Shown one piece after another: positions 16,560-38,444 of a stretch of 64,000 nt of DNA. A model generated the notes under the pieces. The model had not been told where the DNA came from, made no database searches, and saw nothing but the letters and a program-made list of their open reading frames with translations. The stretch's first letter is position 1. Every line of letters starts with the position of its first letter. A program made the position numbers and the translations under genes. The stretch comes from an uncultured virus (IMG/VR IMGVR_UViG_3300024327_000658) (Duplodnaviria > Heunggongvirae > Uroviricota > Caudoviricetes), in the IMG/VR virus record IMGVR_UViG_3300024327_000658; one strand, given 5' to 3'.

Positions 16560-16946
16560 TTAAATCATTTTTCCTAAAATCATGCCAAAGTCATTAGGTA
16601 AATGGTAAATTATATTTTTTTCATCTAAAAGTGTTTTAACTTGATCATATATGGATTCATCAAAATCAAAATACCACATATAATCTTCTGCCCATTGCCC
16701 AGCACATGAAACCAAAGAAAGCAATGTTGAATTATTAGCAGTGTGTTTATATTCATTTTTAACATATCCAGATGTAGTAGGATCAAAAGTGCATATTAAC
16801 GATGATGTTTGTAAATGTATTTTATGAAAGTCTGTTAAATCTGGAACAGGTTCAATATCACAATCCAATACAAATTCATTATCAACTATTGTTAATGTTG
16901 CTTCTATCTCTATTCCGCTCTCTGTTAAAGGCATATTCCGCTCCAA
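16560..16946 (-). CDS. Hypothetical protein (last gene of the island)
   Basis: 128-aa ORF overlapping the upstream gene. Confidence 0.6.
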   Translation of the reverse strand: MERNMPLTESGIEIEATLTIVDNEFVLDCDIEPVPDLTDFHKIHLQTSSLICTFDPTTSGYVKNEYKHTANNSTLLSLVSCAGQWAEDYMWYFDFDESIYDQVKTLLDEKNIIYHLPNDFGMILGKMI

Positions 16947-17512
16947 AAATCATCCCAAATAAGTTTATCTGCTGAATCATAAGGTCTAAACCATTTATCC
17001 CCAACATGCATTTTTTTAACACCATCAAATGGAAGTTCGACCCAAAATAATAAGCGAGGTTTCCATTCTGGATTTAATTTCCAATTTTCCCAATGAAGAA
17101 CACTACCTAAAAACGAATCCATTAATAAATCGTCACCTAAATACAAATAATTTATAATTTTACTGCCTAATTTTCTTAACAAAAGAGGATTTTCTAAAAT
17201 AACAAAAACAGGTAGTCCATAAGCAGAATCAGGAAGTTCATCTAATGATTGCTCGTTAAATGTATGTATTGTTGCACCTGTTTGTTGTAAATCATTCTTA
17301 ATGGCTCTCATCATCTGAACTGCATGAATTTCATATTGTTCCATATCTAAGTCAGAATTAATATTATTATCAGGAAATAAAGATAAGGATACATTCATAA
17401 GAAAATGATTAATCGCAATATTAGAACCATTAAGATGTGTAGGATATAAATCTTTTTTGAGAGAATTCGTCCAAGCAGTTTTAAATATTGTTCTTCGTTC
17501 TTCGGGAGTCAT
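16925..17512 (-). CDS. Hypothetical protein
   Basis: 195-aa ORF, ATGA-coupled. Confidence 0.65.
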   Translation of the reverse strand: MTPEERRTIFKTAWTNSLKKDLYPTHLNGSNIAINHFLMNVSLSLFPDNNINSDLDMEQYEIHAVQMMRAIKNDLQQTGATIHTFNEQSLDELPDSAYGLPVFVILENPLLLRKLGSKIINYLYLGDDLLMDSFLGSVLHWENWKLNPEWKPRLLFWVELPFDGVKKMHVGDKWFRPYDSADKLIWDDFWSGICL

Positions 17513-18009
17513 AATGATATTCCTTTTCGGTCAAAATATTCCGTTATACTATGCATAAAATCATAAATATATGCCCATTTCATATGAAATTGAGGCCTCC
17601 CCTCCTTACTTTGCTGTAAATATTCCATCACGGAACTATTAGGATCAACAGTAGGATATGATGTATATAAATTTTCAAGAAAAGCATCAAAATGTTCTTG
17701 ACCATATTTCGTTGCTAACGAATTATATCCATTTATTATAGTATTTATTCTCGTAGAATACGAATGAATATGATCAGGTCCAGGATGTAATTGTTTATCG
17801 ATATATGTTCGACCTTCTTCTACGGTATCATCTGTATATTGAGTATCATCTATGATAGTCTCTTTTGTAAATCTAATCTTTGATGTTGAATGAATTAAAC
17901 AATGAAGTTCTATTAATAATGTATCATCATCTAGTTCATCTTCCATTTTTAACTTTGACCACAGAGGAGATGTATCTATAGTCGGAAATTCTTCAGTAAT
18001 TCTTCCCAT
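17509..18009 (-). CDS. Hypothetical protein
   Basis: 166-aa ORF with an AAGGA Shine-Dalgarno. Confidence 0.65.
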   Translation of the reverse strand: MGRITEEFPTIDTSPLWSKLKMEDELDDDTLLIELHCLIHSTSKIRFTKETIIDDTQYTDDTVEEGRTYIDKQLHPGPDHIHSYSTRINTIINGYNSLATKYGQEHFDAFLENLYTSYPTVDPNSSVMEYLQQSKEGRPQFHMKWAYIYDFMHSITEYFDRKGISL

Positions 18010-18018
18010 TTTATATCC

Positions 18019-18912
18019 TTACTTTAATGCTTCCAAAAACCAGTCTATTCGTTTTTCTTCTTCTAAAAGGTATTTAGTAAACGGTTTTGCTATTTTACCA
18101 TATTGGCAACTTTCAATAAAGGGTTTATCTTCTGATAAAATGGTCGGTACAAAGTTTTTCGCACTCGTTTTTATAACGTCCGCCATTCGTTCATCCATAC
18201 CTTCTTTATTAAAATATCCTTCATATACTACTGTTGTTTCATTATGTTTTTCGGGAATAAAATAACCAATAAACGTCACAATATCAGAAATATTTGATAT
18301 AAACAAATTAGGAAATATATAGATATTTTCCCATTTCCATTCATCAATATATTTTTTATATCGTTGAGGTGCTTCTGAAACTATTCGTTCTAATGAATGT
18401 TTTCCATATCTTATTTGTTCTGGAATATGGTCTAATGAAAGAAATGGTTTTAACATATTTTTAGATTCTTTATGTACGTGTTTTACATGCTGGTATTCTA
18501 TAACATTTTCAACAAATAATTTCCAATTTGCGTTAATTTTCAACTCGTAATGAAAAAAATGATTATTGGCTTTATAATTATATTTGCGTAATAAAGAAAT
18601 CATTGAAGGATCGTGTTCACCTACAAACAATAAATTTTTATATCTGTAATGAGGATATTGTTTTGCATGAGACTGGTCTTTACCATGATAACCACATACA
18701 AATTCTTGATTACCATATCCTAGGGGGTGTATTAAGGAAAGTCTATGGTCACAAACATTATCATAAACAGCACCATCTCTAACAACAACTGGGTGTTTTC
18801 CTATAAGAAAACTGTGATAATCATTTTTACGTAATGAACGATACCCAGAATCTACAAACATTCCTTTTAAGAATATTTTTTCTATTTCCTCACTAAATCG
18901 TTGTTTTTCCAT
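18019..18912 (-). CDS. Rieske non-heme iron oxygenase alpha subunit (compact)
   Basis: Rieske motif CDH-x16-CGYH; mononuclear Fe motif NWKLFVENVIEYQHVKHVH; distal EDKPFIESCQ. Confidence 0.88.
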   Translation of the reverse strand: MEKQRFSEEIEKIFLKGMFVDSGYRSLRKNDYHSFLIGKHPVVVRDGAVYDNVCDHRLSLIHPLGYGNQEFVCGYHGKDQSHAKQYPHYRYKNLLFVGEHDPSMISLLRKYNYKANNHFFHYELKINANWKLFVENVIEYQHVKHVHKESKNMLKPFLSLDHIPEQIRYGKHSLERIVSEAPQRYKKYIDEWKWENIYIFPNLFISNISDIVTFIGYFIPEKHNETTVVYEGYFNKEGMDERMADVIKTSAKNFVPTILSEDKPFIESCQYGKIAKPFTKYLLEEEKRIDWFLEALK

Positions 18913-20009
18913 TCTCTTTCAGGGATCATAGGCTTCATAAATTTGTTATAAACCATAGTATCTTCAACACGGGACTGTAAATTAAGAATGTTTCGTATAT
19001 CTTTACGTGTTTCTGTAAATTGTGTTTTATAGGGTTCTTGAGAATAATAGTTATAATCTTCAGGAATTAAATGACAATAATTACATGGTGTACGGTATGC
19101 TACTCGTTCATCTACAGGACCTATTCTATTATGTAAAGTTATAGAATTATCAAAAATACATATATCATTATTTTGCTGATATTTATGGTGATAAATATAT
19201 TCATCTACAAATAATTCTTTGTCTAAATCATCTAAAAACTTAGTTCTCTCTACGGTGCCAGGAGAATAGTGTAGTCCTTTTATTCCTCCAGGAGATGTAA
19301 TGACCAGTGGAAGTTCAATCGGTTCAAACGTTTGATTCCACCGAAATAAATCATCTTGATCTTTGTCAATTTCAGGCGCAGTTTCATAATTCTGATATTT
19401 AAAAATGATGGTCATATCATCTAATTCTCTTTTAAAAGAATCTCTTTGCTTCTCGTACCAAGAAGCAGTAGTAGCAAATCCTGTTGAAGTACCAACCATT
19501 CCTTTTATGCCCATTAAAGCAATTCCTGGATTAAATACAATTGATCCCGGTTCATTAGAGTGCCAAAGCAATTCTCCTTCAGCAAACATTCCTATGGCCT
19601 TTCCGTTTTCTTTTATACCAGATATACGGTGTAGTTGAGATTTCCAAGGAATCTTTTCCCCTATAAATTCATCACCTCCGGCCCCCATCCAAGCTAAATC
19701 TTCTGCATGTTTTCGGTCTTCGTCTTCTATAAGATTACGTTTAAATAGACTATAGAAATTGCTTATTCCCAATTTCTCTTTATATTTTTTTCTAATCCTA
19801 TATCCATCTAAAATAAAAGGATCACCCCAAAGAATCATTTTTCGTTCAAATTCATTAGGATGAATATCAACACCTCTAATGATTGTTACTAAATCAGTAA
19901 GATGGTCTTTTCCTAGTTCTATCCAATCATTATCAGACATTTCTGCTAATGATATATCATCTATAAATCGACCATAATCACCGAGTCCGGGTATTTTACT
20001 AGTTTTCAT
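18882..20009 (-). CDS. TauD/TfdA-family 2OG-Fe(II) dioxygenase
   Basis: GELLWHSNE, T.FA, C-terminal DICIFDNSITLHNR...R.AYR. Confidence 0.8.
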   Translation of the reverse strand: MKTSKIPGLGDYGRFIDDISLAEMSDNDWIELGKDHLTDLVTIIRGVDIHPNEFERKMILWGDPFILDGYRIRKKYKEKLGISNFYSLFKRNLIEDEDRKHAEDLAWMGAGGDEFIGEKIPWKSQLHRISGIKENGKAIGMFAEGELLWHSNEPGSIVFNPGIALMGIKGMVGTSTGFATTASWYEKQRDSFKRELDDMTIIFKYQNYETAPEIDKDQDDLFRWNQTFEPIELPLVITSPGGIKGLHYSPGTVERTKFLDDLDKELFVDEYIYHHKYQQNNDICIFDNSITLHNRIGPVDERVAYRTPCNYCHLIPEDYNYYSQEPYKTQFTETRKDIRNILNLQSRVEDTMVYNKFMKPMIPEREWKNNDLVRK

Positions 20010-20806
20010 TGCTTACTCCGTTCATATTTTTCATTTCCCATATCTTCTGCAATGTCTTTTATTATATCAAATACTAATTTCTGAAGATCAAAATTATACG
20101 TAAAGATAAATTCATAATAATTTTCACCCGGTAATGGTGCAGTTCGTAATAATGCTGGTTTCCAAAATCCAGTATTAAAACTTAACGTAATTCTATTGTT
20201 CGTTTGTAGAAAATTAAAATTTTCATTATCAACCAATTCATTTTTTTCCCAAACTTTATTAATAGCAGTTCTTAAAAGAGCAGTTAAATAATTTAATCCA
20301 TCAATTGAACACGCTGTCCATGTTACATATGCTCTACTCTGTGATGATTCATTAATTAAATGTCCCTCACATGATCCAAAAGTTCTAATACCATCAAACA
20401 CGTTGAAAACATCAACTAACGGCTTAATGCCCGTTTCTATTTCAAAAGTATCATTGGTCACACCTCCTCCCATAGAACCACTAGACAAATCTTCAGTTGG
20501 CAAAAGGTCTAATTCATTAAATAAGGCTATATCTTCAGTAGAATTTATATCTTTCCAATTATAACCAATTTCATATTTTTTAAGAAATTCACTAAAAACA
20601 CTTATTAATAGTTCATATTTTAGATTAGCATGTCCACAAATTAATACATATTCTTTTTTTCTTTTCGCTCGTTCAATGTCTTGATCATTACCGCTAATCT
20701 TATCTACTAATGAAATTAATAACTTATTTAACAGGTCCACTCGAATTTTCGAATCAGGATCATGTACAATAATATAATTCTGTCTCCACGTATTAATTGT
20801 AATCAT
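20006..20806 (-). CDS. Hypothetical protein with SCEGH motif; paralog of 30644..31465
   Basis: IETGIKPLVDVFNVFDGIRTFGSCEGH...AYV.W. Confidence 0.65.
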   Translation of the reverse strand: MITINTWRQNYIIVHDPDSKIRVDLLNKLLISLVDKISGNDQDIERAKRKKEYVLICGHANLKYELLISVFSEFLKKYEIGYNWKDINSTEDIALFNELDLLPTEDLSSGSMGGGVTNDTFEIETGIKPLVDVFNVFDGIRTFGSCEGHLINESSQSRAYVTWTACSIDGLNYLTALLRTAINKVWEKNELVDNENFNFLQTNNRITLSFNTGFWKPALLRTAPLPGENYYEFIFTYNFDLQKLVFDIIKDIAEDMGNEKYERSKQ

Positions 20807-21591
20807 ATTTTTCTCAAAAATTTCTCTATAATAAAAACATTTAAAAAATCTGTCTCATACCATTTATCTGACATTTTCGTATTATATGCACTAGGATCAT
20901 AATGGTGATTATTATGTAACATTGATCCAGTAAAACCAGACAACCATTGCCCGAGTGTATTGTTTGTACTTTTATCTGTAGTTTCAAAATTACGATAGCC
21001 CCACATGTGTCCTATAGTATTAACTAAACCTCCAGTATGAAGTGTTATAATACTAGGTAATGCAAAAAAGAAAACAGGTATTCTCCAATCAATTAATGCA
21101 GTTAAAACAAGTGGTGGAACAACTATAGTCAAATAATTTCTATGTAATAATTTTAAGAACGGATCTTTCACAAGATCAGCATACAGTCTATGTTCATATA
21201 TTTCCTGTCTCCAATTAGTAAACCATACATCAAAAGGACTTAAATAATGTGGCGAATGAGGATCTTCAGGTGTGTCAGATTTCTCATGATGATATCTATG
21301 AAATGCAACCCACGGAAATTGAGTTCCTTGGTATATAAAGATTCCGCATATAGCCATAAATTTATGGGCCCAAGATTTTGCTTTAAAGCTTCTATGCGCA
21401 AAATATCTATGGGCGCCTATTTCTCCTCCTATATGTCGAAACAATATAACTCCTACAAGAGTTAACCACAGCCAGTACCATGAACTATATAACAATCCTA
21501 TTACTGATGCAATATGAAATAAAATCATGAAGCTAAAATATGCTTGCCATGAATTATTATACTTTGAGATAATTTTTAATAAACTTCCCAC
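20803..21591 (-). CDS. Membrane fatty-acid desaturase (Delta9/DesC-like) no. 3
   Basis: His boxes HRYFAH, HRYHH, HNNHH; DPHSP; hydrophobic segments. Confidence 0.92.
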   Translation of the reverse strand: MGSLLKIISKYNNSWQAYFSFMILFHIASVIGLLYSSWYWLWLTLVGVILFRHIGGEIGAHRYFAHRSFKAKSWAHKFMAICGIFIYQGTQFPWVAFHRYHHEKSDTPEDPHSPHYLSPFDVWFTNWRQEIYEHRLYADLVKDPFLKLLHRNYLTIVVPPLVLTALIDWRIPVFFFALPSIITLHTGGLVNTIGHMWGYRNFETTDKSTNNTLGQWLSGFTGSMLHNNHHYDPSAYNTKMSDKWYETDFLNVFIIEKFLRKI

Positions 21592-22294
21592 AATAGTCCC
21601 TTTCTTTTCCTGTTACATTTTCATCCCAATTACTAGGATCTTGATGATGATTATTATGCAATCCACTTCCTAATGTTAAATCATTAACCCACCAATTGTT
21701 TGTACTTTTATCTGTAGTTTCAAAATTACGATAACCCCATTTATGACATACAATATTAACTAATGCCGCGCCATGAATAATTCCTACACTGGGTATACTA
21801 ATTAAAAACACAGGCAATCTCCAATCTATTAATGACAATAGTAAAAAAGTTATACCTATGATATAAAAATAATATTTATGGCTTTTTTTGTATATCGGAT
21901 CTTTTAATAAATCAGCATAGTGTTTTATGGGCAAATTAACTTTCCGCCACAATGTTAACCAAACCCTCCACCAAGAAATAATATGAGGTGAATGGGGATC
22001 TAATTCTTCATCAGAATTCATATGGTGGGCCCTATGCGCTATAGCCCAGGAGATAGGGGAACCATAACAATTAAATATTCCTAATGTTGATAACAAAAAA
22101 TGTCTTATTGGACCTGTCTCAAAAGAGTTATGCGCAACATACCTATGATTACCTATTTCACTTCCAAATTTACCAAACAATAAAAATCCAATAGGAATCC
22201 ATAGATACCACGGCAATGGAGAATATATAATTCCTATTACTGCTAAAATATGATTCAATATCAAAAGTATTCTTACACCTATTTGATGTGTCAT
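21557..22294 (-). CDS. Membrane fatty-acid desaturase (Delta9/DesC-like) no. 2
   Basis: His boxes HRYVAH, HRAHH, HNNHH. The ATG at 22294 (ATGA overlap) is preferred over the track start at 22345. Confidence 0.92.
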   Translation of the reverse strand: MTHQIGVRILLILNHILAVIGIIYSPLPWYLWIPIGFLLFGKFGSEIGNHRYVAHNSFETGPIRHFLLSTLGIFNCYGSPISWAIAHRAHHMNSDEELDPHSPHIISWWRVWLTLWRKVNLPIKHYADLLKDPIYKKSHKYYFYIIGITFLLLSLIDWRLPVFLISIPSVGIIHGAALVNIVCHKWGYRNFETTDKSTNNWWVNDLTLGSGLHNNHHQDPSNWDENVTGKERDYCGKFIKNYLKV

Positions 22295-22563
22295 TTTGAT
22301 AGAAAATCCGCACTCTGTAAAGTTTGTGCTAATTGCTGTTGCCACAAAGTTACATCTCCTGTAACTTTTCCGCGACTTGTTAAATTAAACTGTTCGGATA
22401 AATTATTCAAACAGTCCAATATTATTTCTTCTTTCTTATTTTCTGGTTGACCCGCAGTTGCAATAAGAGCAATCCATTCCTGACATCCACCCGGGTATGA
22501 ACCATAAATCGTATTTTCAAGTGATGTCTTTAATATTTCACTTACTTTTTCTATATTGCCCAT
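22291..22563 (-). CDS. Hypothetical protein (~90 aa)
   Basis: GGAG Shine-Dalgarno before the ATG at 22563; coupled to the desaturase downstream. Confidence 0.55.
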   Translation of the reverse strand: MGNIEKVSEILKTSLENTIYGSYPGGCQEWIALIATAGQPENKKEEIILDCLNNLSEQFNLTSRGKVTGDVTLWQQQLAQTLQSADFLSK

Positions 22564-22564
22564 G

Positions 22565-23341
22565 TTATTCTCCAAAATCATGATAAGTTTGTTTTTCTGT
22601 TATTGATTCTTTCACTCTGATATCGTTCCATTGCTGTTTTGTCATTCCATGTACTTGAGATTCGTGATCTATGTCCATAAACATGATCAAACTATGTCGT
22701 TCTTTTTTTGTTGAATTTGATACCCTATGGGGAGTAGATTTTAATTTATTTTGGGTCCACCACTGCATAAAATCACCACAATTAACTATTATAAAATCAT
22801 CACCAGGATGTTTTATCAAAGTCCATTCGCCATCAATGCATACTTCATATTCTTCTACAGGATCACATACATGCACTAATGTCAATGTTCCGAAATCACA
22901 ATGACTGCCTAATCGATTATTTCCTATTTGATCTTTATAATATTTTACAAATATCAAATCATTACTTGATTTCTCGTGTTTCAGTGTTATTGAATTAGGC
23001 GGCAATTTCATATATTCTTCAATAGCATATAATATATCACACCCAACTTTTATATATTGGCTCCTTATAGTATTTACGCACTCCCAATCATCAGACATAT
23101 TTTTTAGAACAACTCTTTCGTTTGCTTCTCCGGGAAACCTTTTTGAACTTGATCGACCTTCTTCGTACATAGGTAATGTCTTTAAATCCGCCGCTTTTAA
23201 TTTTTCACGTAATTGTTCTAATGATCCTTTCATATCAATAAAAGGATTTACTACTAATAAAAAACCAGTATTTTTAAAACTATCTACAATTGATTTAGAA
23301 TTCCAATCAGACGAATTAAATACTATTGAACTTGGAGCCAT
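22565..23341 (-). CDS. 2OG-Fe(II) oxygenase, isopenicillin-N-synthase-like (DIOX) family
   Basis: GFLLVVN, HCDFGTLT (HxD), NCGDFMQWWT, STPHRV, RHS (RxS). Confidence 0.9.
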   Translation of the reverse strand: MAPSSIVFNSSDWNSKSIVDSFKNTGFLLVVNPFIDMKGSLEQLREKLKAADLKTLPMYEEGRSSSKRFPGEANERVVLKNMSDDWECVNTIRSQYIKVGCDILYAIEEYMKLPPNSITLKHEKSSNDLIFVKYYKDQIGNNRLGSHCDFGTLTLVHVCDPVEEYEVCIDGEWTLIKHPGDDFIIVNCGDFMQWWTQNKLKSTPHRVSNSTKKERHSLIMFMDIDHESQVHGMTKQQWNDIRVKESITEKQTYHDFGE

Positions 23342-24081
23342 TTTATAAACCTTGCGCCGGGATCGATTTCACCAAAACGATATTTATTTTGGTCATTATG
23401 ATGATTCAAGTGCCACCCCTCTCCACCTGTTATCAATGCTATCAATAAATTATTAGAAGGTTCACCATGTCTATGACAATAAGCATTTATAAGACCGTAT
23501 CCGTGATTTGCAAATACAATAGGAAGACAATAACCAAATACTAACAATAAAGGATCTATTAAAAAAAATATTAATATGATTAATGCATGTAATTTAAGAT
23601 AATTATCATAAAACCATTTTAAACTAGAATTTTTACTAAGACTTAACCAATCTTTAAGGTCTTCTCTTTCTGTTGGTATATACCTAAATCCTGCTTGAAA
23701 CCAACCACTTGTATATACCCACCAAAAACCCTTATGTTTCGGACTATGTGGATCTTTCTCTGTATCGACGTATTTATGATGATCCCTGTGAACACCTATC
23801 CATACTAATGCGGGTCCAGGATTTCCGAATAATCCAATAATTTGACTATAAATTTCATACCACTTGCCGATCTTAAAACTATTATGAGTCCAATATCTAT
23901 GGTAGCCACTTGTGCCAGCAGTTATATGAACAAATTGCCACCATATAAAACTATACAATAACATCCACCATTCGCCATAAATTATTGCGGGTATAATAAC
24001 TAAATGACAAAATACATTAATAGACCAAATACTATACCTGTTTAATGTAGCATTTTTTTCTAATGAGCCCATATATAACAA
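23323..24081 (-). CDS. Membrane fatty-acid desaturase (Delta9/DesC-like) no. 1
   Basis: His boxes HRYWTH, HRDHH, GEGWHLNHH; DPHSP. The likely start is the ATG at 24072. Confidence 0.92.
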   Translation of the reverse strand: MLYMGSLEKNATLNRYSIWSINVFCHLVIIPAIIYGEWWMLLYSFIWWQFVHITAGTSGYHRYWTHNSFKIGKWYEIYSQIIGLFGNPGPALVWIGVHRDHHKYVDTEKDPHSPKHKGFWWVYTSGWFQAGFRYIPTEREDLKDWLSLSKNSSLKWFYDNYLKLHALIILIFFLIDPLLLVFGYCLPIVFANHGYGLINAYCHRHGEPSNNLLIALITGGEGWHLNHHNDQNKYRFGEIDPGARFIKWLQVQ

Positions 24082-24434
24082 ACTCCTACTACATATTCAT
24101 CTGTATCAGACAATGATATTCTTACATCTTGTCTTGGGCCTTTGTATTCTTTCGATACTGAAGCATGTACAACAGGAAATCGAACCCCCCTGCTTGTCAA
24201 ATGCATGTAACTAACATCTAATCTTAAATAAGGTGAAGCTATTGCTTTAGAATATGCTTCCTTAACACACCAACATTTAGTTAAATATCTAGCAGTCATA
24301 GGACTGGGCGCATTTCTTTTTTCAATATCTGTTAATATTTTATTAACAAATTTGTCTCCCCATTTATCATATATCTTTTGAATAGGTTCGATTGTTTGTA
24401 AATCAATACCTATTAAATTTTCTCTAGCAGACAT
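24060..24434 (-). CDS. acpS: Holo-ACP synthase (AcpS-type phosphopantetheinyl transferase)
   Basis: IGIDL, F..KILT..E, WCVKEAYSKA, ISLSD; 124 aa, the size of AcpS. Confidence 0.85.
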   Translation of the reverse strand: MSARENLIGIDLQTIEPIQKIYDKWGDKFVNKILTDIEKRNAPSPMTARYLTKCWCVKEAYSKAIASPYLRLDVSYMHLTSRGVRFPVVHASVSKEYKGPRQDVRISLSDTDEYVVGVCYIWAH

Positions 24435-30672: not shown

Positions 30673-31465
30673 GATATTTTATCTGTTCAAATACTCTTTC
30701 TTGTTCAATAGCCATATATTTGTAAGCAAATTCAAATTGAGTATCAGAATTGCCCCCATCAAACGTTAGCATTAATCCATTTTTTTCAAACCACGCTTTT
30801 GTTGACCAATCTTCATGGTTAAATAATTTAAAATAGTTCCACATAATTTTAATATTTTTTTCTATGGAAGACGAAAAAATATTTAAATTTTTCATTGAAT
30901 CTACAGTAAAAACTATATACGCACAACATTGCCAGTCTGTATCATATGCGGGATCGTTTTGATCGTAATGGCCCTCACACGATTCTATAACATCAACACC
31001 ATCAAATATATTAATTCCACTAACCAACGGTTCTATTCCACATTCAACAATATCTTTTTGATGATCTTTAATTTCTATGTGGCCTATCTGTAAAGCACCA
31101 AGTCTATTAAGATTTTCATAAACTTCTGTTGGTAACCCAGACATATGATCATACACTAATCCAAATTTAGATAAAAAGTTATTCAATATTAATCTAAAAG
31201 ATTTTGATGATTTCTCTGTATTTTCAATAATGATAAAATCACCTATCATATTACCACAATTTTCAATACCTGTCGTTTTTTCAATTACATGATTTAATAC
31301 CGTTAAATCAATAAGATGATCAATATCTTTTATGATAAACAAATTAGACCTAAATTGATATACTGTTACATCCTTACGATCTATTAAATATCCAGGCAAA
31401 TATTTTGTGGGACCGCCAGTGTCCGCAGTTCTGGTGTCTACTACTGGTTCATCAAATATTCCCAT
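30644..31465 (-). CDS. Hypothetical protein with SCEGH motif; paralog of 20006..20806
   Basis: VECGIEPLVSGINIFDGVDVIESCEGH...AYIVF. Confidence 0.65.
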   Translation of the reverse strand: MGIFDEPVVDTRTADTGGPTKYLPGYLIDRKDVTVYQFRSNLFIIKDIDHLIDLTVLNHVIEKTTGIENCGNMIGDFIIIENTEKSSKSFRLILNNFLSKFGLVYDHMSGLPTEVYENLNRLGALQIGHIEIKDHQKDIVECGIEPLVSGINIFDGVDVIESCEGHYDQNDPAYDTDWQCCAYIVFTVDSMKNLNIFSSSIEKNIKIMWNYFKLFNHEDWSTKAWFEKNGLMLTFDGGNSDTQFEFAYKYMAIEQERVFEQIKYLGKLLHGKK

Positions 31466-31478
31466 AAAACCTTTCTTC

Positions 31479-32807
31479 TCAAGTACCTCTTTGAAGTTTC
31501 TTTATGTTATGATTATCTTTAGATTGTAAAAAAGCCAAGGTCGAATTATAATCCTTATAATCAAAAGATTTAATTTTTTCTTCAGTTTTAATTTTAAAAT
31601 TTGTTAACCTTTTATATTTTTCATTCTTTTGCCACGCCTCATCTATCATCTCAAACATATCTACTTCTTCTTTATCTGCATTTGGCTCATAAAATCCTGT
31701 CCTACCCCCCCAAAGCGTCTTAATATATGTTTGAAAAGTTGGCATATCTTTACATATTTCTACCATTCTTATCGCTTCATCATAATATATATGAAACAAT
31801 TCGCACACAGAATCGATTGGTTGATTACCATTTCTTAATTGCGAATATGTACAACCTGCATTACACACTTTATATAATCTACATCCTTTACATTTATCAA
31901 ATGCTAAAGGATTAAATACAGATTGAAAATAATCAAAATTATATTCATCGCCTTTCATTGGTAATAATTTCTTTGAGCCAAATCTTGCACATGGATAAAA
32001 TGTTCCATCTACTGCCATAATAGAACCATGATGACCAGCAAAACACCCGAATGCTCGTTTTTGTTTAGTTAATCCTAATAACATGTCTTGTAGGGGAAGA
32101 TTAAACATTCCATTAGATATTAATTTTCCTTCATCATAATATTGTATGGTTCTATCTGCCAGTCTTCGACATTCCACTCTAAATTTATGAATATCGTCTA
32201 GGGACCAAATATCATCTCTTACAATAGAAAAATCAGGAGCAGGAATACCGAAATCTACTAAAAATTCAAAATTTTCTGTCATTGAATCAACATTGCCTGG
32301 AAATATCATAATTTTACATGTTTTATTATGTTTTGTAACTTTCTTTATAAGATGTTGTCTATCACTGTACATCTCTAAAACATTATTGTATCCTTTATTC
32401 TCTCCAAAATTTTTAATAATAGGTCTTGATTCGTTTGCTGATATACCATCAAAACTCCAACTAACTCCAATCTGATTATCTAATATCCAATCAGCAGTTT
32501 CTTCGTTAATTAACGATAGATTAGATATCATAGTAAGACCAACCAATCTATCCTCATATTCAGGAACTTTAACTTTTTTACAAACATGATCCATCAATGG
32601 CACATTTAATAGTGGTTCGCCCCCAAAAAAAGATAAATGAAATTGTTGACCATGGGCTTTTGATCTTTGAATTAATTGTAAAAATTCTGGCCAAGCCTTA
32701 TCAAAAATTTCAGGAGTCATAAATTTATCAACATTAGCAACATAGCAATACGGGCACCCCAAATTGCATTTTTCTGTTACAGATATTTCTAATTGATAAC
32801 TAGGCAT
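31479..32807 (-). CDS. Radical SAM/SPASM enzyme no. 2
   Basis: CNLGCPYC, FFGGEPLLN, SFDG; SPASM CFAG...DGTFYPC...CKGCRLYKVCNAGC...C. The ATG at 32807 (MPSYQ) is preferred over the track start at 32864. Confidence 0.93.
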   Translation of the reverse strand: MPSYQLEISVTEKCNLGCPYCYVANVDKFMTPEIFDKAWPEFLQLIQRSKAHGQQFHLSFFGGEPLLNVPLMDHVCKKVKVPEYEDRLVGLTMISNLSLINEETADWILDNQIGVSWSFDGISANESRPIIKNFGENKGYNNVLEMYSDRQHLIKKVTKHNKTCKIMIFPGNVDSMTENFEFLVDFGIPAPDFSIVRDDIWSLDDIHKFRVECRRLADRTIQYYDEGKLISNGMFNLPLQDMLLGLTKQKRAFGCFAGHHGSIMAVDGTFYPCARFGSKKLLPMKGDEYNFDYFQSVFNPLAFDKCKGCRLYKVCNAGCTYSQLRNGNQPIDSVCELFHIYYDEAIRMVEICKDMPTFQTYIKTLWGGRTGFYEPNADKEEVDMFEMIDEAWQKNEKYKRLTNFKIKTEEKIKSFDYKDYNSTLAFLQSKDNHNIKKLQRGT

Positions 32808-34350
32808 ATTTGCTCTCTGTAGTTTCTGATCTCTTTGGTAAGCTTGATATATTAAAAACTGCACCTATATTCTTGGCCGTTTCTGAAGTGGGCTCTTTGG
32901 ATAAACCAGATATAACAGGAGTTTGCTGTTCAATAGAATTGACTTCTAAATTATGACCCTGCGAATAATTTCCTGGTCTATTCATCATAATTATTGAATC
33001 CGGATTCTTTTTAATCCACAGGGTTCTCCATGCTTTAGATACAGGCTCCAGTGTTTTCCATACTTGACACAATTGATGATTTGCTGGATGATTTTGCCAT
33101 TTTTTACCAGCATCCTGTTCTTCACCAAATTTTGCATCTGCGGCATCAAATGAACCCGCAGGACACTTTAAACAAAAATCCGCTGTACATGTATTACACG
33201 CTAATGTTCCATCTGTTCTAAATTCATCCAAATAAGAACGATATAATGATGTTGTTTCATCCACAAATTTTTGCATTTGCATACCAGATTCCATTAAATC
33301 GCCTCTTACATGATCCTCTCTTTGTCTATACATACACCCATGACAAGGATATGTTTTACCGTCTAAATCAATTGAAAGATAATTAATACCAGCCGCACAA
33401 TTTTGTTTTTCTTTTCTGAACCATCTAAAGTGATTTTCTAAATTAATATCATGATCTATACTATATTTCACAATTTTCATTAAATTCACTCTTAGATCCT
33501 TTAAGTGACCCATATATTCTTCTTCCTTAACTGCACCATCAATTCTATCTGGATCTGTACTGTGAGTGTCAGGAGTGGGTCCATATGATTCTCCATTATC
33601 ATAATGCCATTTCCAAACATCAAAAAGATATTTAAAATTGCGAGATGATATGACTGCTTTAATACCTATAGAAAAACCATCAGATTTTAACTCTTTATAA
33701 GTTGCATAAACAGTTTTAGATAATTTTTCACTTTCTCCTGCTTTAGTTCTACGTTCCATCGTATTAACAGGTTCACCATCAAAAGATACTTGAATATGTA
33801 AACGTGATTGTTGCGGCATATCTAATCTATTTCCCAACAGACCTTTTAATTCTATTAACTGTTTTTTATACTTTTTAAGATAAGTTCCATTAGTATAGAA
33901 CATAAAACATACTTTTTGAGTATCAGCCAATCTTTTCATTATATCTTTGCAAAAAAGAAAATTAGCAAAAGGTTCTCCGCCCCACCAATTTATATTAATA
34001 TCTCTATACCTATCCATATCCAATGACCTAACTGTTTTTTCTATATCTTCAGGAGTCATCTCTGTTTTTTCTTGATATTGTGATGACAATCCGCACGATT
34101 CTCCTTCAGAACAATATGTACAAGCAAGATTACATTCACTCGTTACATTAACATCTAAATTAAAACTTTGCATTGGATTAAAATTATTTGACATTGCACC
34201 ACCACCCTGTCCCTGGGGCATTGTTGATCCCCCCATCTGTTTTAACATTTTTTCTTGTTCTTCCATCGTTTTTCGCATTTGCATCATTTGCTGTTGCATT
34301 TGTTCGGGTGACATTTGTTCTTTTATAGGATCAAATCGGATATTATTCAT
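32800..34350 (-). CDS. Radical SAM/SPASM enzyme no. 1
   Basis: CNLACTYC, WWGGEPF, YTNG, VSFDG; SPASM CAAG...DGKTYPCHGC...CNTC...CLKC...C; Met/Gln-rich N-terminal extension. Confidence 0.93.
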   Translation of the reverse strand: MNNIRFDPIKEQMSPEQMQQQMMQMRKTMEEQEKMLKQMGGSTMPQGQGGGAMSNNFNPMQSFNLDVNVTSECNLACTYCSEGESCGLSSQYQEKTEMTPEDIEKTVRSLDMDRYRDININWWGGEPFANFLFCKDIMKRLADTQKVCFMFYTNGTYLKKYKKQLIELKGLLGNRLDMPQQSRLHIQVSFDGEPVNTMERRTKAGESEKLSKTVYATYKELKSDGFSIGIKAVISSRNFKYLFDVWKWHYDNGESYGPTPDTHSTDPDRIDGAVKEEEYMGHLKDLRVNLMKIVKYSIDHDINLENHFRWFRKEKQNCAAGINYLSIDLDGKTYPCHGCMYRQREDHVRGDLMESGMQMQKFVDETTSLYRSYLDEFRTDGTLACNTCTADFCLKCPAGSFDAADAKFGEEQDAGKKWQNHPANHQLCQVWKTLEPVSKAWRTLWIKKNPDSIIMMNRPGNYSQGHNLEVNSIEQQTPVISGLSKEPTSETAKNIGAVFNISSLPKRSETTESKYA

Positions 34351-34353
34351 TTT

Positions 34354-34965
34354 TTATTTCGAGTTATTACAGTTACATGGACAGTGATTACAATCACATG
34401 GACAAAAATTACAGTTACATGGACAAAAATTACAGTTACAAGGACAGAAATTACAATTACAGGGACAAAAATTACAATTACAGGGACAAAAATTACAATT
34501 ACAGGGACAAAAATTACAGTTACATGGACAGTGATTACAATTACATGGACAAAAATTACAATCACATGGACAAAAATTACAATCACATGGACAAAAATTA
34601 CAATTACATGGACAAAAATCACAATCACATACGCACACAACTTTCCATTCATCGAGTTTTGTTACCAGATCGTCTATATGTGCGGCGGCTATTAAATCTC
34701 CGACACTTACAGCACCATAAGATAATGTTGGTGCGGGACTTGGTGGAGTTTGGGTATATAACTTACTTACTATTTCTCCACGCAATTCATTCCAAATTTG
34801 TGCGGCGACAGGATCTGCCATGCTGGTCCAAGATGAAATCGCTATACTTCTTCTTGTAAACTCATCATTTAATGAAGTTCTGCAAGTAGTTATCTCTGAC
34901 TGCTGAATTAGTGTACCAGCTTGTGCAGGTAAACCAGTTAAATTGGTAGGACATGGCGAACCCAT
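34354..34965 (-). CDS. Cys-rich repeat protein, candidate radical SAM substrate
   Basis: 110-aa N-terminal domain, then 13 heptads C[P/V]C[N/D]C[N/D][F/H/N] (39 Cys); directly upstream of the rSAM genes; GGAG Shine-Dalgarno. Confidence 0.85.
   Translation of the reverse strand: MGSPCPTNLTGLPAQAGTLIQQSEITTCRTSLNDEFTRRSIAISSWTSMADPVAAQIWNELRGEIVSKLYTQTPPSPAPTLSYGAVSVGDLIAAAHIDDLVTKLDEWKVVCVCDCDFCPCNCNFCPCDCNFCPCDCNFCPCNCNHCPCNCNFCPCNCNFCPCNCNFCPCNCNFCPCNCNFCPCNCNFCPCDCNHCPCNCNNSK
34363..34635. repeat. 21-bp coding tandem repeat, 13 copies
   Basis: Units like aaaattacaattacagggaca; many substitutions are synonymous in the Cys frame. Confidence 0.95.
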
Positions 34966-35132
34966 TATATTTTACTCCAAAATTTATTCCGTATTAATTT
35001 ATCATCATTTCCCAAATAAAGAAAATTTGTGATTCTTGAACCAAGTTTCTTTAATAACATTTCTTCATCTATCTCACTATCAAAATCAAGATTACCCCAA
35101 AAAGGTGCATCAGTTATATTTGCATATTCCAA
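34965..35132 (-). CDS. Small hypothetical protein (55 aa, TTG start) in frame with the upstream fibre gene
   Basis: Hand-translated: LEYANITDAPFWGNLDFDSEIDEEMLLKKLGSRITNFLYLGNDDKLIRNKFWSKI. Its TAA overlaps the next ATG (TAATG). Confidence 0.45.
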   Translation of the reverse strand: MEYANITDAPFWGNLDFDSEIDEEMLLKKLGSRITNFLYLGNDDKLIRNKFWSKI

Positions 35133-35144: not shown

Positions 35145-38100
35145 TCATATTTTCACTTCAACAAATCCAGCATCACTATCAGACAATGCTATTCCAATTA
35201 AATCGTGTTTATGTGATTTATATTCATATTTAGTTATAGATTTTCCTGCACCATCATTATAAGCCATAATAAGGTCCCCTTTAACACATCTTCCCACAAT
35301 CTTAACTAATATTCTTCCGGTCAAACAAATAAAGATCATAAATTCATTTTTTCTCTGTTCCATACTATCATTCATCCTCAATCCAGGATTATCTGAAACA
35401 ACACCAGCATAAGGCATTTCAGCTTGATATAGAGTAACTTCTTTTTCTCCTCCAATTGATAAAACAGTTCCTGGATCATATACCAAATCAGACTCATATC
35501 TCTCGGCCAAGTCAGACCAACTCGCTGATGTTGCTCTTCCATTAAATGTAACCGCATACATATCGTTATATACCATTGTAGATGTACCGATATCGTGTGT
35601 ATTATTTGCGACAGGAACAATGGCCTTAGTTGTCATTGTTCCATCAAAACCAGAAGTTCCATATACTTTTAAAGCTGATAATCCAGTCACTCCACTTGAA
35701 GAAAAAATAGCACCATTAAAATACAATTCTGTTGGTGTAGTAATATCATTTACTCTATATCCAGAATACGCTCCAAGCGAAGATGATGATGCATAATATT
35801 GAACATATCCAGCGGCTCCTGCTGGACTGGTCGGCGCTCCATCAGCTCCAGAACTTCCAGCAGAGCCAGATGTTCCAGCAGTACCAGCACTTCCTGCACT
35901 TCCAGCAGAACCAGATGATGCATATGTTAATCCAGAAGAACCAGCAGTCCCAGACGTTCCAGAAGAACCAGCAGAGCCAGAAGTTCCCGCAGATCCAGAC
36001 GTTCCAGCAGAACCAGAAGAACCAGAAGAACCAGCAGTACCAGATGATCCAGAAGTTCCAGAACTTCCTTCTCCAAAAGTTAATGCCGCCCAACCAGATA
36101 TTGCAGTAGCAAAAACTAATTTAGCGGTATTTGAACTAATATAACGAATTGATTCTGGATAAATTACATCATAGTTAGAATCTACAACTTCAATATTTAA
36201 AGGTCTAACTCCTAAATTATGATTTATTAACCAAACAGAACTTGCTGAACCTTGAACATGAATCCAGGAACCACCATCTTGACCAGAAGAACCAGCACTT
36301 CCAGCACTTCCTGCGGAACCCGCACTTCCTGCAGTTCCAGCAGAACCAGAAGAACCAGAAGAACCAGCAGTACCAGATGATCCAGAAGTTCCAGCAGAGC
36401 CAGATGATCCTGCACTTCCAGCACTTCCTGCACTTCCAGAAGAACCAGCAGAACCAGAAGAGCCAGCGGAACCAGATGTTCCAGCAGAGCCAGAAGTTCC
36501 AGCAGAGCCAGCACTACCAGCACTTCCTGCAGAACCAGCAGAACCAGCACTTCCAGCAGAGCCAGATGATCCAGATGATCCAGAAGTTCCAGCACTACCA
36601 GCACTTCCTGCAGAACCAGCAGAACCAGCACTTCCAGCAGAGCCAGATGATCCAGATGATCCAGAAGTTCCAGCGGTACCAGAATCACCAGTTCTTGCGA
36701 ATGAAGCAACAATTTCAGTATTGTTTTGAAAATTATTTAATGAAGAATCTAAAAATGTAACATCCACATAATACCATGAGGGATTTGTGGTATCAAATTC
36801 ATTAATGCTGTATAAGAAATACTTTTCAGGAGCTGATTTATCATAAATTCGAAAATGGCCTTTTGGAACACTAAAAGCAACATCATCAATTGTCTGTAAG
36901 AAAGAATCAATTGTCGTGCCATCTTGATCAGTATCACTTATTCTCAATCTATTAGCAGTAGTGGGATATGTAAAAGCACCAGTAGTTAATGTAAATGCCA
37001 ATTTACCCGTACCTGGATCATTCGTTGATTGATCTGTACTGTAACGATATGCAAATGAAGCACCCCCAAAACCACCATCATGTCCAGATGAACCAGAAGT
37101 ACCAACAGTCCCAGAACTTCCAGAACTTCCAGCAGAACCAGATGTTCCAGATGATCCAGAAGTTCCAACACTTCCAGAAGAACCCGCAGAACCAGCAGAA
37201 CCAGAAGATGCATATGTCAATCCAGAAGAACCAGCAGAACCAGATGTTCCAGCAGAACCAGATGTTCCAGATGATCCAGAAGTTCCAGCACTTCCTGCAG
37301 AACCAGCAGAACCAGCAGAACCAGCACTTCCAGCAGAGCCAGCACTTCCTGCAGTTCCAGCACTTCCAGAAGAACCAGCAGAACCAGAAGAACCAGAAGA
37401 TGCATATGTCAATCCAGAAGAACCAGCAGAACCAGAAGTACCAATTGGACCATCAGCTCCAGATGATCCAGAAGTTCCAGCACTTCCAGCAGAACCCGCA
37501 GAACCCGCAGTTCCAGAAATTCCAGAAGAACCAGCACTTCCAGCAGAGCCAGCACTTCCTGCAGAACCAGTACTTCCAGAAGAACCTGCAGTTCCAGAAG
37601 TTCCCGCAGTTCCAGAAATTCCAGAAGAACCAGATGTTCCAGATGATCCTGCACTTCCAGCACTTCCTGCACTTCCAGAAGAACCAGCAGAACCAGAAGT
37701 ACCAATTGGACCATCAGCTCCAGATGATCCAGAAGTTCCAGCAGAGCCAGAAGAAGCATATGTCAATCCAGAAGAACCAGCAGAACCAGAAGTTCCAATT
37801 GGACCATCAGCACCAGAAGTTCCAGATGTTCCAGCAGAGCCAGCACTTCCCGCAGAACCCGCAGTTCCAGAAATTCCAGAAGAACCAGCACTTCCAGCAG
37901 AACCAGAAGATGCATATGTCAAGCCAGAACTTCCGGAACTACCCGCACTTCCGGAAGAAGTATCCCCTCCTCCGCCTCCACCAGATTCTCCCCAACCACT
38001 TCCACCGGCCACTCGTTGGGCAGTTAAAGTGGCTTTTTTACTAATCTTTTTAACAACTTCTTTAAAATTATCTAACTCTTTTACGAGTTTAGTTACATCA

Positions 38101-38444
38101 GCATCATCACCAGATTCTCCCTTTTCTCCCATTGGTCCTATAGGTCCAATATCTCCTAAATCTCCCCTAGGACCCTGAACACCTTGTGGACCAATTCTTC
38201 CTGATATTCCTTTAACGCCCACTTCGCCAGCAAGCCCCTTTTCGCCCTTTTCTCCCTTTTCTCCCTTAGGACCTACAGTGCCTTTAATTTCAAGAACTTT
38301 AACTGTTTCACCAGTAACAGGATCTAAAATTTCTTTTATATCCTCTACAAGTTCTTCTTTAGTTTTTTTTAATTGTTTTTTAGTATAAGCAAGAGAAGTT
38401 GCTAGAACCTTACTTAAATCTAAATCTTTTTGATCGTCTTTCAT
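35145..38444 (-). CDS. Collagen-like / Gly-Ser-Ala repeat fibre protein with a fibre-chaperone-like C-terminus
   Basis: GPKGEKGEKG collagen tract; three long G-[S/T]-[A/S] tracts separated by globular domains; WLINHNLG motif; C-terminal DLAERYESD..YDPGTVLSIGGEKEVT...GRILVK. Confidence 0.8.
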   Translation of the reverse strand: MKDDQKDLDLSKVLATSLAYTKKQLKKTKEELVEDIKEILDPVTGETVKVLEIKGTVGPKGEKGEKGEKGLAGEVGVKGISGRIGPQGVQGPRGDLGDIGPIGPMGEKGESGDDADVTKLVKELDNFKEVVKKISKKATLTAQRVAGGSGWGESGGGGGGDTSSGSAGSSGSSGLTYASSGSAGSAGSSGISGTAGSAGSAGSAGTSGTSGADGPIGTSGSAGSSGLTYASSGSAGTSGSSGADGPIGTSGSAGSSGSAGSAGSAGSSGTSGSSGISGTAGTSGTAGSSGSTGSAGSAGSAGSAGSSGISGTAGSAGSAGSAGTSGSSGADGPIGTSGSAGSSGLTYASSGSSGSAGSSGSAGTAGSAGSAGSAGSAGSAGSAGSAGTSGSSGTSGSAGTSGSAGSSGLTYASSGSAGSAGSSGSVGTSGSSGTSGSAGSSGSSGTVGTSGSSGHDGGFGGASFAYRYSTDQSTNDPGTGKLAFTLTTGAFTYPTTANRLRISDTDQDGTTIDSFLQTIDDVAFSVPKGHFRIYDKSAPEKYFLYSINEFDTTNPSWYYVDVTFLDSSLNNFQNNTEIVASFARTGDSGTAGTSGSSGSSGSAGSAGSAGSAGSAGSAGTSGSSGSSGSAGSAGSAGSAGSAGSAGSAGTSGSAGTSGSAGSSGSAGSSGSAGSAGSAGSSGSAGTSGSSGTAGSSGSSGSAGTAGSAGSAGSAGSAGSSGQDGGSWIHVQGSASSVWLINHNLGVRPLNIEVVDSNYDVIYPESIRYISSNTAKLVFATAISGWAALTFGEGSSGTSGSSGTAGSSGSSGSAGTSGSAGTSGSAGSSGTSGTAGSSGLTYASSGSAGSAGSAGTAGTSGSAGSSGADGAPTSPAGAAGYVQYYASSSSLGAYSGYRVNDITTPTELYFNGAIFSSSGVTGLSALKVYGTSGFDGTMTTKAIVPVANNTHDIGTSTMVYNDMYAVTFNGRATSASWSDLAERYESDLVYDPGTVLSIGGEKEVTLYQAEMPYAGVVSDNPGLRMNDSMEQRKNEFMIFICLTGRILVKIVGRCVKGDLIMAYNDGAGKSITKYEYKSHKHDLIGIALSDSDAGFVEVKI
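35840..37960. repeat. 9-bp-period coding repeats (Gly-X-X tracts), three blocks
   Basis: ccagcagaa/ccagaagaa/ccagcactt units in blocks at about 35840-36070, 36280-36690 and 37080-37960. Confidence 0.9.

Follow-up and report, generated by a model that had tools for sequence, protein, structure and literature searches.

A 22-kb island between the portal and prohead genes of a marine T4-like phage holds a fibre-linked radical-SAM cassette and a type III polyketide synthase module

Position, packing and late promoters of the island

We analysed a stretch of 64,000 nucleotides (nt) from an uncultured virus of the class Caudoviricetes (IMG/VR record IMGVR_UViG_3300024327_000658), called the window throughout, and in particular the gene island that occupies positions 38444 down to 16560. 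The window is part of a T4-like myovirus with a GC content of about 31%, and all genes discussed here lie on its minus strand. Twenty-seven co-oriented open reading frames (ORFs) run from the portal gene gp20 to a late-promoter motif at 16534. They form two modules. Module 1 comprises a collagen-like fibre, a Cys-repeat protein, three radical S-adenosylmethionine (SAM) enzymes of PapB/CteB-like type and small conserved partners. Module 2, present only in the lineage of the window, consists of an acyl carrier protein (ACP), a holo-ACP synthase (AcpS), a type III polyketide synthase (PKS), a short-chain dehydrogenase/reductase (SDR), three desaturases and Fe oxygenases. The borders of the island are the following.

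38471..40153, minus strand: portal gene gp20, upstream border (Pfam Portal_T4, E 4e-178)
16534..16541, minus strand: late-promoter motif at which the prohead genes restart, downstream border (ATATAAATATAAATTAGATA kept in four of five upstream regions of relatives examined)

The packing of the island is tight. Intergenic gaps do not exceed 26 nt and 21 of the 26 junctions overlap, which bears out the roughly 27 co-oriented, overlapping or abutting ORFs of the initial annotation of this DNA, made from the letters alone. The only longer gap (60 nt) separates o128 from the next gene and contains the promoter motif. Profile annotation recovered each of the enzyme classes listed at that time, mostly above Pfam's own cut-offs: PP-binding (ACP), ACPS, Chal_sti_synt_N and _C, FA_desaturase (two ORFs), the oxygenase families Ring_hydroxyl_A, TauD, 2OG-FeII_Oxy and Asp_Arg_Hydrox, and Radical_SAM in three ORFs (45.0, 42.3 and 39.7 bits). 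Seven island ORFs were left without any family assignment. The opening ORF, a collagen-repeat fibre of 1099 amino acids (aa), had gone unnamed in the initial annotation.

The flanks are T4-like, with Pfam matches to gp18, gp19 and gp20 upstream and to prohead protease, scaffold and gp23 downstream; further matches in the window are to gp8, neck, sheath-stabiliser and small and large terminase proteins and, after gp23, to UvsY and UvsW. Among 2,591 phage records matching the portal protein, none exceeds 54% identity, and Synechococcus and Prochlorococcus phages give the best matches; megablast of the island against 50,697 phage records returned zero matches. In T4, the gene order is 20-67-68-21-22-23. 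The window has the order of portal, small prohead-core genes, protease, scaffold and capsid in common with T4, but 22 kb of additional genes lie between its portal gene and the small prohead ORFs. Four such ORFs, 74-90% conserved in relatives, are found at 14947-16499 between the promoter and the prohead protease, and two of them (106 and 132 aa) are extremely rich in lysine and arginine. They probably correspond to the T4 prohead core or internal proteins at the position of gp67/68.

Transcription of the island can be approached from the placement of late-promoter motifs, of which one more has to be introduced.

43201..43208, minus strand: late-promoter-like TATAAATA upstream of gp18 (extended motif ATATAAATATAA, also upstream of gp18 in the relative G002)

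This site is the likely start of a transcript running into the island. The promoter previously placed at 16534 is present as well: TATAAATA occupies minus-strand positions 16534-16541, with the next start 35 nt downstream of it, and is kept in relatives. The motif ATATAAATATAA, longer than the TATAAATA of T4, precedes gp22 (14282), the first gene after the island (16534) and gp18 (43201), all on the minus strand, and before the first post-island gene it was kept in four of the five upstream regions examined. No TATAAATA was detected on the coding strand of the island. Over the whole window the number of TATAAATA occurrences is not above chance (10 found, 14.4 expected), and it is the placement of the motif and its conservation in relatives that are informative, not its count. 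The layout matches that of a T4-type late unit, with a TATAAATA-type promoter motif at the start and none inside. Scans for sigma-70-like promoters (110, against 119.5 in shuffled sequences) and for terminators (7 against 6.8) gave no excess. Tight packing, the lack of internal late-promoter motifs and the lack of a terminator excess therefore make read-through from the gp18 promoter plausible, and to this extent the earlier proposal of read-through from the gp18-19-20 late operon can be upheld.

The fibre-linked radical-SAM cassette

The genes of module 1, together with the small genes that accompany them, are listed below in the order of the island.

35145..38444, minus strand: collagen-repeat fibre of 1099 aa, its conserved C-terminal domain weakly matching the auto-cleaving chaperone type (Collagen E 2e-66; tail-fibre PHROGs)
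34965..35132, minus strand: 55-aa ORF resembling a deletion scar (N-terminal part similar to the o166 family; residues 21-43 similar to o195 residues 106-128)
34354..34965, minus strand: Cys-repeat protein of 203 aa, putative radical-SAM substrate (three-helix N-domain of ~110 aa, then 13 heptads C-P-C-N/D-C-N-F/H)
32800..34350, minus strand: radical SAM/SPASM enzyme, 516 aa (CNLACTYC at residue 73, eight further C-terminal Cys; PapB 75.4 bits)
31479..32864, minus strand: radical SAM/SPASM enzyme, 461 aa (PapB 135.5 bits; CX2CX5CX3C at 325-338 plus flanking Cys)
30644..31465, minus strand: 273-aa protein (o273), paralogue of the 266-aa ORF (common ...FDG...SCEGH block)
30247..30672, minus strand: 141-aa protein, o141 (C-terminal 80 aa conserved beside the third radical-SAM gene)
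28895..30247, minus strand: radical SAM enzyme, 450 aa (110-aa N-terminal extension; C-terminal CX3CX2CX2C only)
27988..28902, minus strand: 304-aa protein, o304 (conserved helical N-terminus, invariant CxC...CDNxC block)
27782..27991, minus strand: 69-aa protein, o69 (between o304 and o245, as in G002)
27044..27781, minus strand: 245-aa protein, o245 (between radical-SAM block and ACP in four of about five lineages)
16560..18009, minus strand: three conserved small genes of 166, 195 and 128 aa, o166, o195 and o128 (in relatives between fibre and Cys-repeat gene)

The Cys-repeat protein contains 41 cysteines in 203 residues, and its C-terminal tail consists of 13 C-P-C-N-C-N-F heptads. Since 10 of the 13 DNA units differ, the heptad repeat is conserved at the protein level. 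Among 129 heptads pooled from 12 of 13 family members, position 4 was N, Q or D in 128 and position 6 was N or D in 128, while position 2 was P in 115 and position 7 was F, H or Y in 121. The conservation of positions 4 and 6 gives each heptad two overlapping C-x-x-(N/D/Q) motifs and a third Cys. A Cys-rich putative substrate with a Cys-Xn-Asp/Asn/Gln acceptor pattern is thereby found adjoining radical-SAM genes. The family is small, 13 of 128 candidate proteins having reached E <= 0.001. Its members have 7-14 heptads, a near-identical variant of the window protein having two fewer, and share a helical domain and an LDEWK block ahead of the repeats. AlphaFold modelled the N-domain as three helices with a predicted local distance difference test score (pLDDT) of ~80. 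A tblastn search of the protein against the 50,697 phage records gave zero matches. The only relative in 185,579 species genomes, among 181 pattern matches, lies on a 3.9-kb contig (L057) of a Thermoplasmata metagenome-assembled genome (MAG). Besides two radical-SAM genes, this contig has a 99-aa ORF like the chaperone of endosialidase and codes for a protein of 181 aa that bears a short Cys tail; it is probably a mis-binned viral fragment.

All three radical-SAM proteins carry the CxxxCxxC cluster motif (residues 73, 33 and 120), and their best NCBIfam row is in each case PapB (NF047865; 75.4, 135.5 and 62.9 bits, in the same order). Pfam SPASM matched one of them weakly (E 0.009). Among solved structures, chain 5wgg (E 1.9e-13) is closest to the 461-aa enzyme; its companion entry 5WHY is named CteB by Dieter et al. 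2026 (PMC13692751). The 516-aa and 461-aa enzymes, the sole pair measured within the window, are ~23% identical; each of the three enzymes is kept as its own orthologue group across relatives, and they are thus distinct paralogues. The 461-aa enzyme belongs to a large family: of 2,294 candidates, at least 404 protein clusters reached E <= 1e-10, and the longest contig encoding a member measures 259 kb. The family's only relatives in cultured phages belong to the Campylobacter CP220 group (33-35% identity over ~360 aa). Campylobacter phages CP220 and CP21 are likewise T4-like myoviruses with radical-SAM genes (PMC2853527; annotation of NC_027997); unlike in the window, no Cys-repeat partner was found beside the homologue gp023 when we looked for one in CP220. 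Reports by others describe as many as 12 radical-SAM genes in T4-like environmental genomes (PMC5332604) and, in cyanophage S-SCSM2R, a "radical SAM maturase" whose role is unclear (PMC12801897).

As for the small partners, all lineages have o166, o195 and o128 along with the cassette; in the window, they stand at the distal end of the island. Judged from its chimeric sequence, the 55-aa ORF looks like a deletion scar of a second o166-o195-o128 copy; on this view, the trio would once have stood on both sides of the block that extends from the Cys-repeat to the Rieske gene. The structure model of o195 is good (pLDDT 84.8, predicted template-modelling score 0.80). Foldseek found nothing similar to it at E <= 0.001; in a wide VIA-align comparison the best Z was 6.2, the bar of the tool being about 8, and the top rows were mostly papain-like, CHAP and C39 peptidase folds at Z 5-6.2. 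No Cys or His is conserved in the o195 family, and the model would make o195 at most an inactive, substrate-binding relative. The paralogues o273 and o266 have a block ...PLV...FDG....SCEGH in common; the domain with this block is absent from the copies of the 273-aa gene in G002 and in another relative, L049. ESM Atlas features of o266 gave 0.88 for unnamed viral clusters, 0.83 for MTHFR_C/DUF6919 and 0.80 for TYW3, all below 0.9 and thus leads only; for o266 and o273, the scores of 0.80-0.83 hint weakly at SAM-binding MTHFR_C/TYW3-like clusters. For o245, the ESM Atlas held nothing usable.

The genes asked after in a synteny search stayed linked in related phages and were not scattered. A fibre C-terminal domain, the Cys-repeat protein, an o195-like protein and the three radical-SAM orthologues in the same order occur in G002, L049 and G004, and in G003 they do so up to the point where the contig breaks off. 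The genome of G004, complete at 157,283 bases and bearing terminal repeats, has the cassette placed with large fibre genes on one side and neck genes on the other. The members there are a collagen fibre with a chaperone-type C-terminus (a weak match to Peptidase_G2, E 2.5e-4, below cut-off), a Cys-repeat protein whose heptads read C-T-C-N-C-N-F, an o195-like protein, the three radical-SAM orthologues in unchanged order and an o141-like protein; no PKS homologue is present in this genome. In G003, whose portal is 52% identical to that of the window, gp20, gp21, gp22 and gp23 are consecutive, gp20 and gp21 being separated by no more than three small ORFs (59-112 aa), and the fibre domain, o166, o195, o128, Cys-repeat and radical-SAM genes follow 13 kb beyond gp20-gp23, after fibre genes. 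The placement inside the head operon stressed by the initial annotation thus holds for the window and G002 but not for G003 and G004, where the cassette stands among tail-fibre or neck genes. From this, it follows that the head-operon position is a trait of the lineage and not of the system.

Two observations concern the fibre gene itself. A change in repeat length at 36283-36646 falls in a Gly-Ser/Ala-rich collagen region, and G002 has two collagen genes (1679 and 1576 aa) where the window has one.

The acyl carrier protein and type III polyketide synthase module

The second module follows, with the small genes interspersed in it.

26265..27047, minus strand: Asp/Asn beta-hydroxylase-like (AspH-like) Fe oxygenase, accessory (Pfam; absent from G002)
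26036..26287, minus strand: acyl carrier protein (PP-binding 30.1 against cut-off 20.8; DS(I) phosphopantetheine site)
25438..26043, minus strand: SDR (26.3 against Pfam cut-off 26.6; TGxxxGxG and YxxxK)
24413..25441, minus strand: type III PKS (triad C137/H270/N303; Chal_sti_synt N and C 36.2 and 33.7 bits against 27)
24060..24434, minus strand: holo-ACP synthase of AcpS type (ACPS 41.8 against cut-off 25)
23323..24081, minus strand: membrane desaturase 1 (Pfam; His boxes)
22565..23341, minus strand: 2-oxoglutarate (2OG)-Fe(II) oxygenase (Pfam)
22291..22581, minus strand: 96-aa protein, o96 (conserved)
21557..22345, minus strand: membrane desaturase 2 (Pfam; His boxes)
20803..21591, minus strand: membrane desaturase 3 (no Pfam row; NCBIfam DesA_fam 83.5 bits; three His boxes)
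20006..20806, minus strand: 266-aa protein, o266, paralogue of the 273-aa ORF (sequence comparison)
18882..20009, minus strand: TauD-family Fe/2OG dioxygenase (Pfam)
18019..18912, minus strand: Rieske-type oxygenase alpha subunit (CxH...CxxH and ExxHxxxxH iron site)

The PKS aligned with Mycobacterium tuberculosis Pks11 (4jao) over 295 residues (E 1.4e-29) and carries the motifs GLACNGG, CHPGG and GNMSATS. In 11 phage homologues C137 and N303 are invariant and H270 is kept in at least 90%. Twenty metagenomic homologues (67-100% identity) make up a phage clade. The next-best matches, mostly from Bacteroidota where a taxon is given, are 25-30% identical and labelled type III polyketide synthase, predicted naringenin-chalcone synthase or alkylresorcinol/alkylpyrone synthase at their source; the DpgA model scored 70 bits against a cut-off of 425. 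Bacterial long-chain type III PKSs (Pks11 4jao, CylI 8ysp and the Bacteroidota enzymes) have the same chalcone-synthase fold, Cys-His-Asn triad and length of ~340-350 aa and, as at the window PKS, tailoring enzymes in the neighbourhood. The window enzyme differs from them in its 25-30% identity, in being accompanied by its own ACP, AcpS and several membrane desaturases, and in residing in a lytic-type phage.

The three desaturases (252-262 aa) each have HxxxxH, HxxHH and HxxHH boxes and two to three hydrophobic 19-mers. Their His boxes resemble those of delta-9-type enzymes, such as the published cyanophage desaturases. The cyanophage vFAD enzymes are likewise membrane desaturases with three His boxes from marine T4-like phages (PMC5776448), whereas the window has three shorter tandem paralogues inside an ACP/PKS cluster. 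G002 has seven such paralogues (contig positions 27099-32633, loci L017/L027), 25-67% identical to the three of the window. No homologue of the window desaturases was found in cultured cyanophages at E <= 1e-5, and a search of the PDB with the TauD sequence gave 0 hits.

In G002, whose core proteins are 68-91% identical to those of the window, the island lies at the same place in shuffled order. It begins with two collagen fibres, o166-o195-o128, the Cys-repeat gene and three radical-SAM genes with o273 and o141, continues with o304-o69-o245, ACP, TauD, SDR, PKS, AcpS and 2OG, and ends with seven tandem desaturases, o266 and o96, followed by small head genes and gp21-23; the AspH-like and Rieske genes are missing. 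Across relatives the ACP-SDR-PKS-AcpS core is fixed, and desaturases (two to seven), TauD, Rieske, AspH and 2OG oxygenases, o266 and a 278-aa methyltransferase are variable. In the relative L049, a full Asn synthase was observed after the island.

Proposed function, alternatives and authenticity

We propose that the island consists of two adjacent, late-expressed modules, a fibre-linked thioether cassette and a small phenolic-lipid pathway, a reading to which we give about even chances. As for the first, the Cys-repeat protein would be the substrate of the three radical-SAM enzymes, which would be of the thioether-forming peptide-maturase type and might install Cys-to-Asn/Asp (ranthionine-type) crosslinks along the heptads, so that the tail would become a stiff ladder resistant to proteases. 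In every case the cassette comes after a fibre gene with a chaperone-type end, and for this reason the crosslinked product would most likely be part or partner of the fibre on the virion. As for the second, AcpS would activate the phage ACP, the type III PKS would condense an acyl starter with malonyl units to an alkylpyrone or alkylresorcinol-type phenolic lipid, and the SDR, membrane desaturases and Fe oxygenases, with a methyltransferase in some relatives, would tailor this lipid.

Thioether formation has precedents in cellular organisms. CteA is the precursor of the ranthipeptide (SCIFF) maturase CteB, and PapA/PapB (freyrasin) is a ranthipeptide system of the class of peptides that are made on the ribosome and modified after translation (RiPPs) (PMC10739248). 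PapB/CteB, to which the best family row and the best solved relative of the window enzymes belong, likewise have a substrate with repeated Cys and an acidic or amide acceptor, a CxxxCxxC motif and, as a possible further parallel, auxiliary-cluster cysteines, but the window enzymes score far below the family cut-off and their putative substrate is 203 aa long. The closest experimental precedent is CrpA/CrpB/CrpC of Methanococcus voltae, in which C-X-X-Q/D motifs of CrpA, a repeat protein of 28.8 kDa, receive ranthionine links from CrpC (Dieter et al. 2026, PMC13692751). CrpA is described there as a full-size protein with an N-terminal recognition region and C-terminal Cys repeats with C-X-X-Q/D, encoded next to a SPASM radical-SAM gene and small partner proteins, all of which recalls the window; its repeat is 17 residues long, against 7 here. 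The window system also differs in being viral and fibre-tied and in having three different enzymes where Crp has one. With the CrpC family model TIGR04463, the 461-aa enzyme scored 38.6 bits against a cut-off of 525.

A number of points weigh against the proposal. For the cassette, no radical-SAM protein reaches any NCBIfam cut-off (best 135.5 bits against 340 for PapB), and the 450-aa enzyme has too few C-terminal cysteines for a full SPASM domain. AlphaFold gave the heptad region low confidence (pLDDT 40-56), and Foldseek searches of the Cys-repeat model against PDB and BFVD returned nothing at E <= 0.001, including for the N-domain. A canonical RiPP cluster has a short precursor with a cleaved leader; the putative precursor here has 203 aa, and no peptidase or ABC transporter family that could represent a leader protease or exporter was recognised in the 27 ORFs. 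The putative virion association is read from gene neighbourhood. For the lipid pathway, the distance of the PKS clade from named enzymes makes the product class a guess, and no acyltransferase (GNAT, condensation or other) was found in the 27 ORFs at E <= 0.01 in Pfam or NCBIfam. As for expression, contigs of three RNA libraries from three studies fall on all 30 bins of 14301-34300 at an identity of at least 99%, but such libraries can hold DNA and contig depth is no expression measure, so that they document presence only. Their depth was 45, 40 and 13 at 14301-15634 and about 1-18 over the island, while a DNA run was flat (10.9-15.1); although contig depth cannot rank genes, this step is a weak hint that the 16534 promoter boosts the head genes.

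Alternatively, both modules might serve one integrated pathway, in which an acyl or polyketide chain built on the ACP is moved onto the crosslinked Cys-repeat protein or the fibre. We consider this unlikely. It would account for the position of module 2: the third radical-SAM gene and o304 are followed by ACP-SDR-PKS-AcpS in all ten contigs that reach far enough upstream, a regularity that could also reflect shared descent within one phage group instead of shared function and counts among the points against our own proposal as well. The ten contigs, about five sequence lineages with a PKS identity of 66-100%, come from 13 of the 19 loci of a PKS-profile metagenome scan plus G002 and G005; five other analysed loci start or end too early for the call, and six were omitted, namely L038 (identical to the window), L040 (same contig as L026) and L047, L050, L055 and L056 (below 3.3 kb). 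Further in favour of a joint pathway, no promoter motif separates the modules, the bridging genes o304, o69 and o245 occur only where module 2 is present, and residues P4, C5, P6 and N8 at the extreme N-terminus are invariant in 13 of 13 Cys-repeat proteins. The same N-terminus is, however, found in G004, which carries the cassette without module 2, and the bridging proteins have no recognisable fold or family. In lipidated RiPPs of the selidamide, lipolanthine and goadvionin type, the analogue of such a pathway, a GNAT-type acyltransferase joins the acyl chain to the peptide, and it is this enzyme that the search of the 27 ORFs did not find. The single hybrid system of the initial annotation did not find support in that form: module 1 is a separate fibre-tied cassette that exists without a PKS in a complete genome. 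An elaborate version, in which the whole array is one virion-chemistry pathway that staples each heptad thrice, with one enzyme per Cys position, and then decorates the protein or fibre with a custom unsaturated phenolic lipid assembled on the phage ACP, strikes us as quite doubtful. If true, it would mean that a virus uses RiPP and PKS natural-product chemistry on its own particle, and that the variable desaturase and oxygenase set diversifies surface chemistry between strains.

Another explanation is that a hyperplastic gap within the structural module has collected unrelated, host-directed auxiliary genes. Desaturases and oxygenases would then remodel host lipids and metabolism and share no product with the radical-SAM cassette. 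TauD homologues (34-37% identity) do stand alone in Prochlorococcus phages P-HM1, P-HM2 and MED4-213, a desaturase is present in Pelagibacter phage Mosig, and accessory genes are gained and lost between relatives; cyanophage delta-9 desaturases acting on host lipids have been published (Roitman et al., PMC5776448). Against this, the own ACP, AcpS, type III PKS and SDR, in an order fixed in all relatives, point to one pathway, and among 50,697 phage records a PKS homologue occurs in only two, both of Streptomyces phage ZL12 (24% identity). We hold this explanation to be rather improbable.

The Cys-repeat protein could also be a metal or Fe-S binder, either metallothionein-like or a metal-stapled fibre core for which the His-Fe needle of T4 gp37 is a model, with the radical-SAM enzymes acting elsewhere or using the protein only as cluster donor. 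The 41 cysteines in CxCxC arrangement and the His at heptad position 7 in some relatives would suit this, and CrpA has been speculatively linked to metal binding (PMC13692751). Yet N, D or Q at positions 4 and 6 (128 of 129 each) is needless for metal and fits acceptor residues, and three peptide-maturase-type enzymes co-inherited across distant phages need a substrate. Metal binding in place of crosslinking thus has a low probability in our view.

The weakest alternative, an assembly chimera of a phage with a bacterial biosynthetic cluster, has nothing in its favour except gene content that looks "bacterial" and is practically negligible given that contigs taken as independent assemblies cross both junctions, that the arrangement is the same in diverged relatives, that composition and codon usage are identical to those of core genes, and that the Cys-repeat family matches only the one MAG contig. 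Three IMG/VR contigs, whose independence we took from the differing metagenome numbers in their identifiers, are 99.8-99.99% identical to the window across 14416-43753, and therefore span both junctions without a sign of chimerism; their only structural difference is the repeat-length change in the collagen gene near 36283-36646. In DNA run X9, a single contig covers 14301-18905 with 0 differences. Records of the identical Cys-repeat protein come from 77 contigs, of which the longest has 204,426 bases. Fourteen marine DNA runs contain 0.99 or more of the sampled words of a 10-kb island stretch, with ten studies (2012-2019) named by 11 of these runs and none by the other three; any of these runs may be the source sample, and independence is therefore not guaranteed. 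The same stretch was found at 0.32-0.75 of sampled words in six metatranscriptome libraries. The comparison of composition proposed at the outset showed that the island matches the core genes: relative synonymous codon usage correlated with theirs at r = 0.97 and 0.91 for the two island halves, and the GC content of third codon positions was 0.19 in all gene sets. A local GC content of 46% is due to the collagen-repeat gene at 35145..38444. The island is authentic phage DNA and, in our reading, has been inherited vertically within a T4-like phage that is abundant in the sea. At 16019 and 29548, contigs of four runs (three RNA, one DNA) all depart from the window sequence; these positions are probably recombination break-points between co-occurring strains.

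Literature searches, with supplementary files outside their scope, turned up no phage with this gene combination, in line with what had been presumed from the start, and no radical-SAM crosslinking of a virion protein. To our knowledge, experiments showing that a full-size protein is enzymatically crosslinked through thioethers date only from 2026 and concern a single archaeon. The same thioether logic would now appear in an abundant ocean virus, with a fibre gene adjacent, three enzymes and an unusually regular substrate, and if the product sits on the virion, this would be a new way for phages to harden or diversify the structure that contacts the host. The regular heptads and compact enzyme set would also be attractive for peptide-stapling biocatalysis. 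Module 2, similarly, would be the first ACP-dependent type III PKS pathway to be reported from a phage of lytic type, and would represent a novel form of lipid metabolism that marine viruses express late. Biosynthetic clusters are reported mainly from temperate phages (bioRxiv 10.1101/2020.10.01.322628).

Outside the island, a smaller second accessory cluster lies at 7189-11599 between gp23 and UvsY/UvsW, with two or three methyltransferases, a group-1 glycosyltransferase and other ORFs. A 2287-aa structural protein at 52507-59370 matches DUF4815 in three stretches, and an Asn-synthase/QueC-like ATP-pyrophosphatase and a peptide deformylase are encoded at the low end of the window (471-1969).

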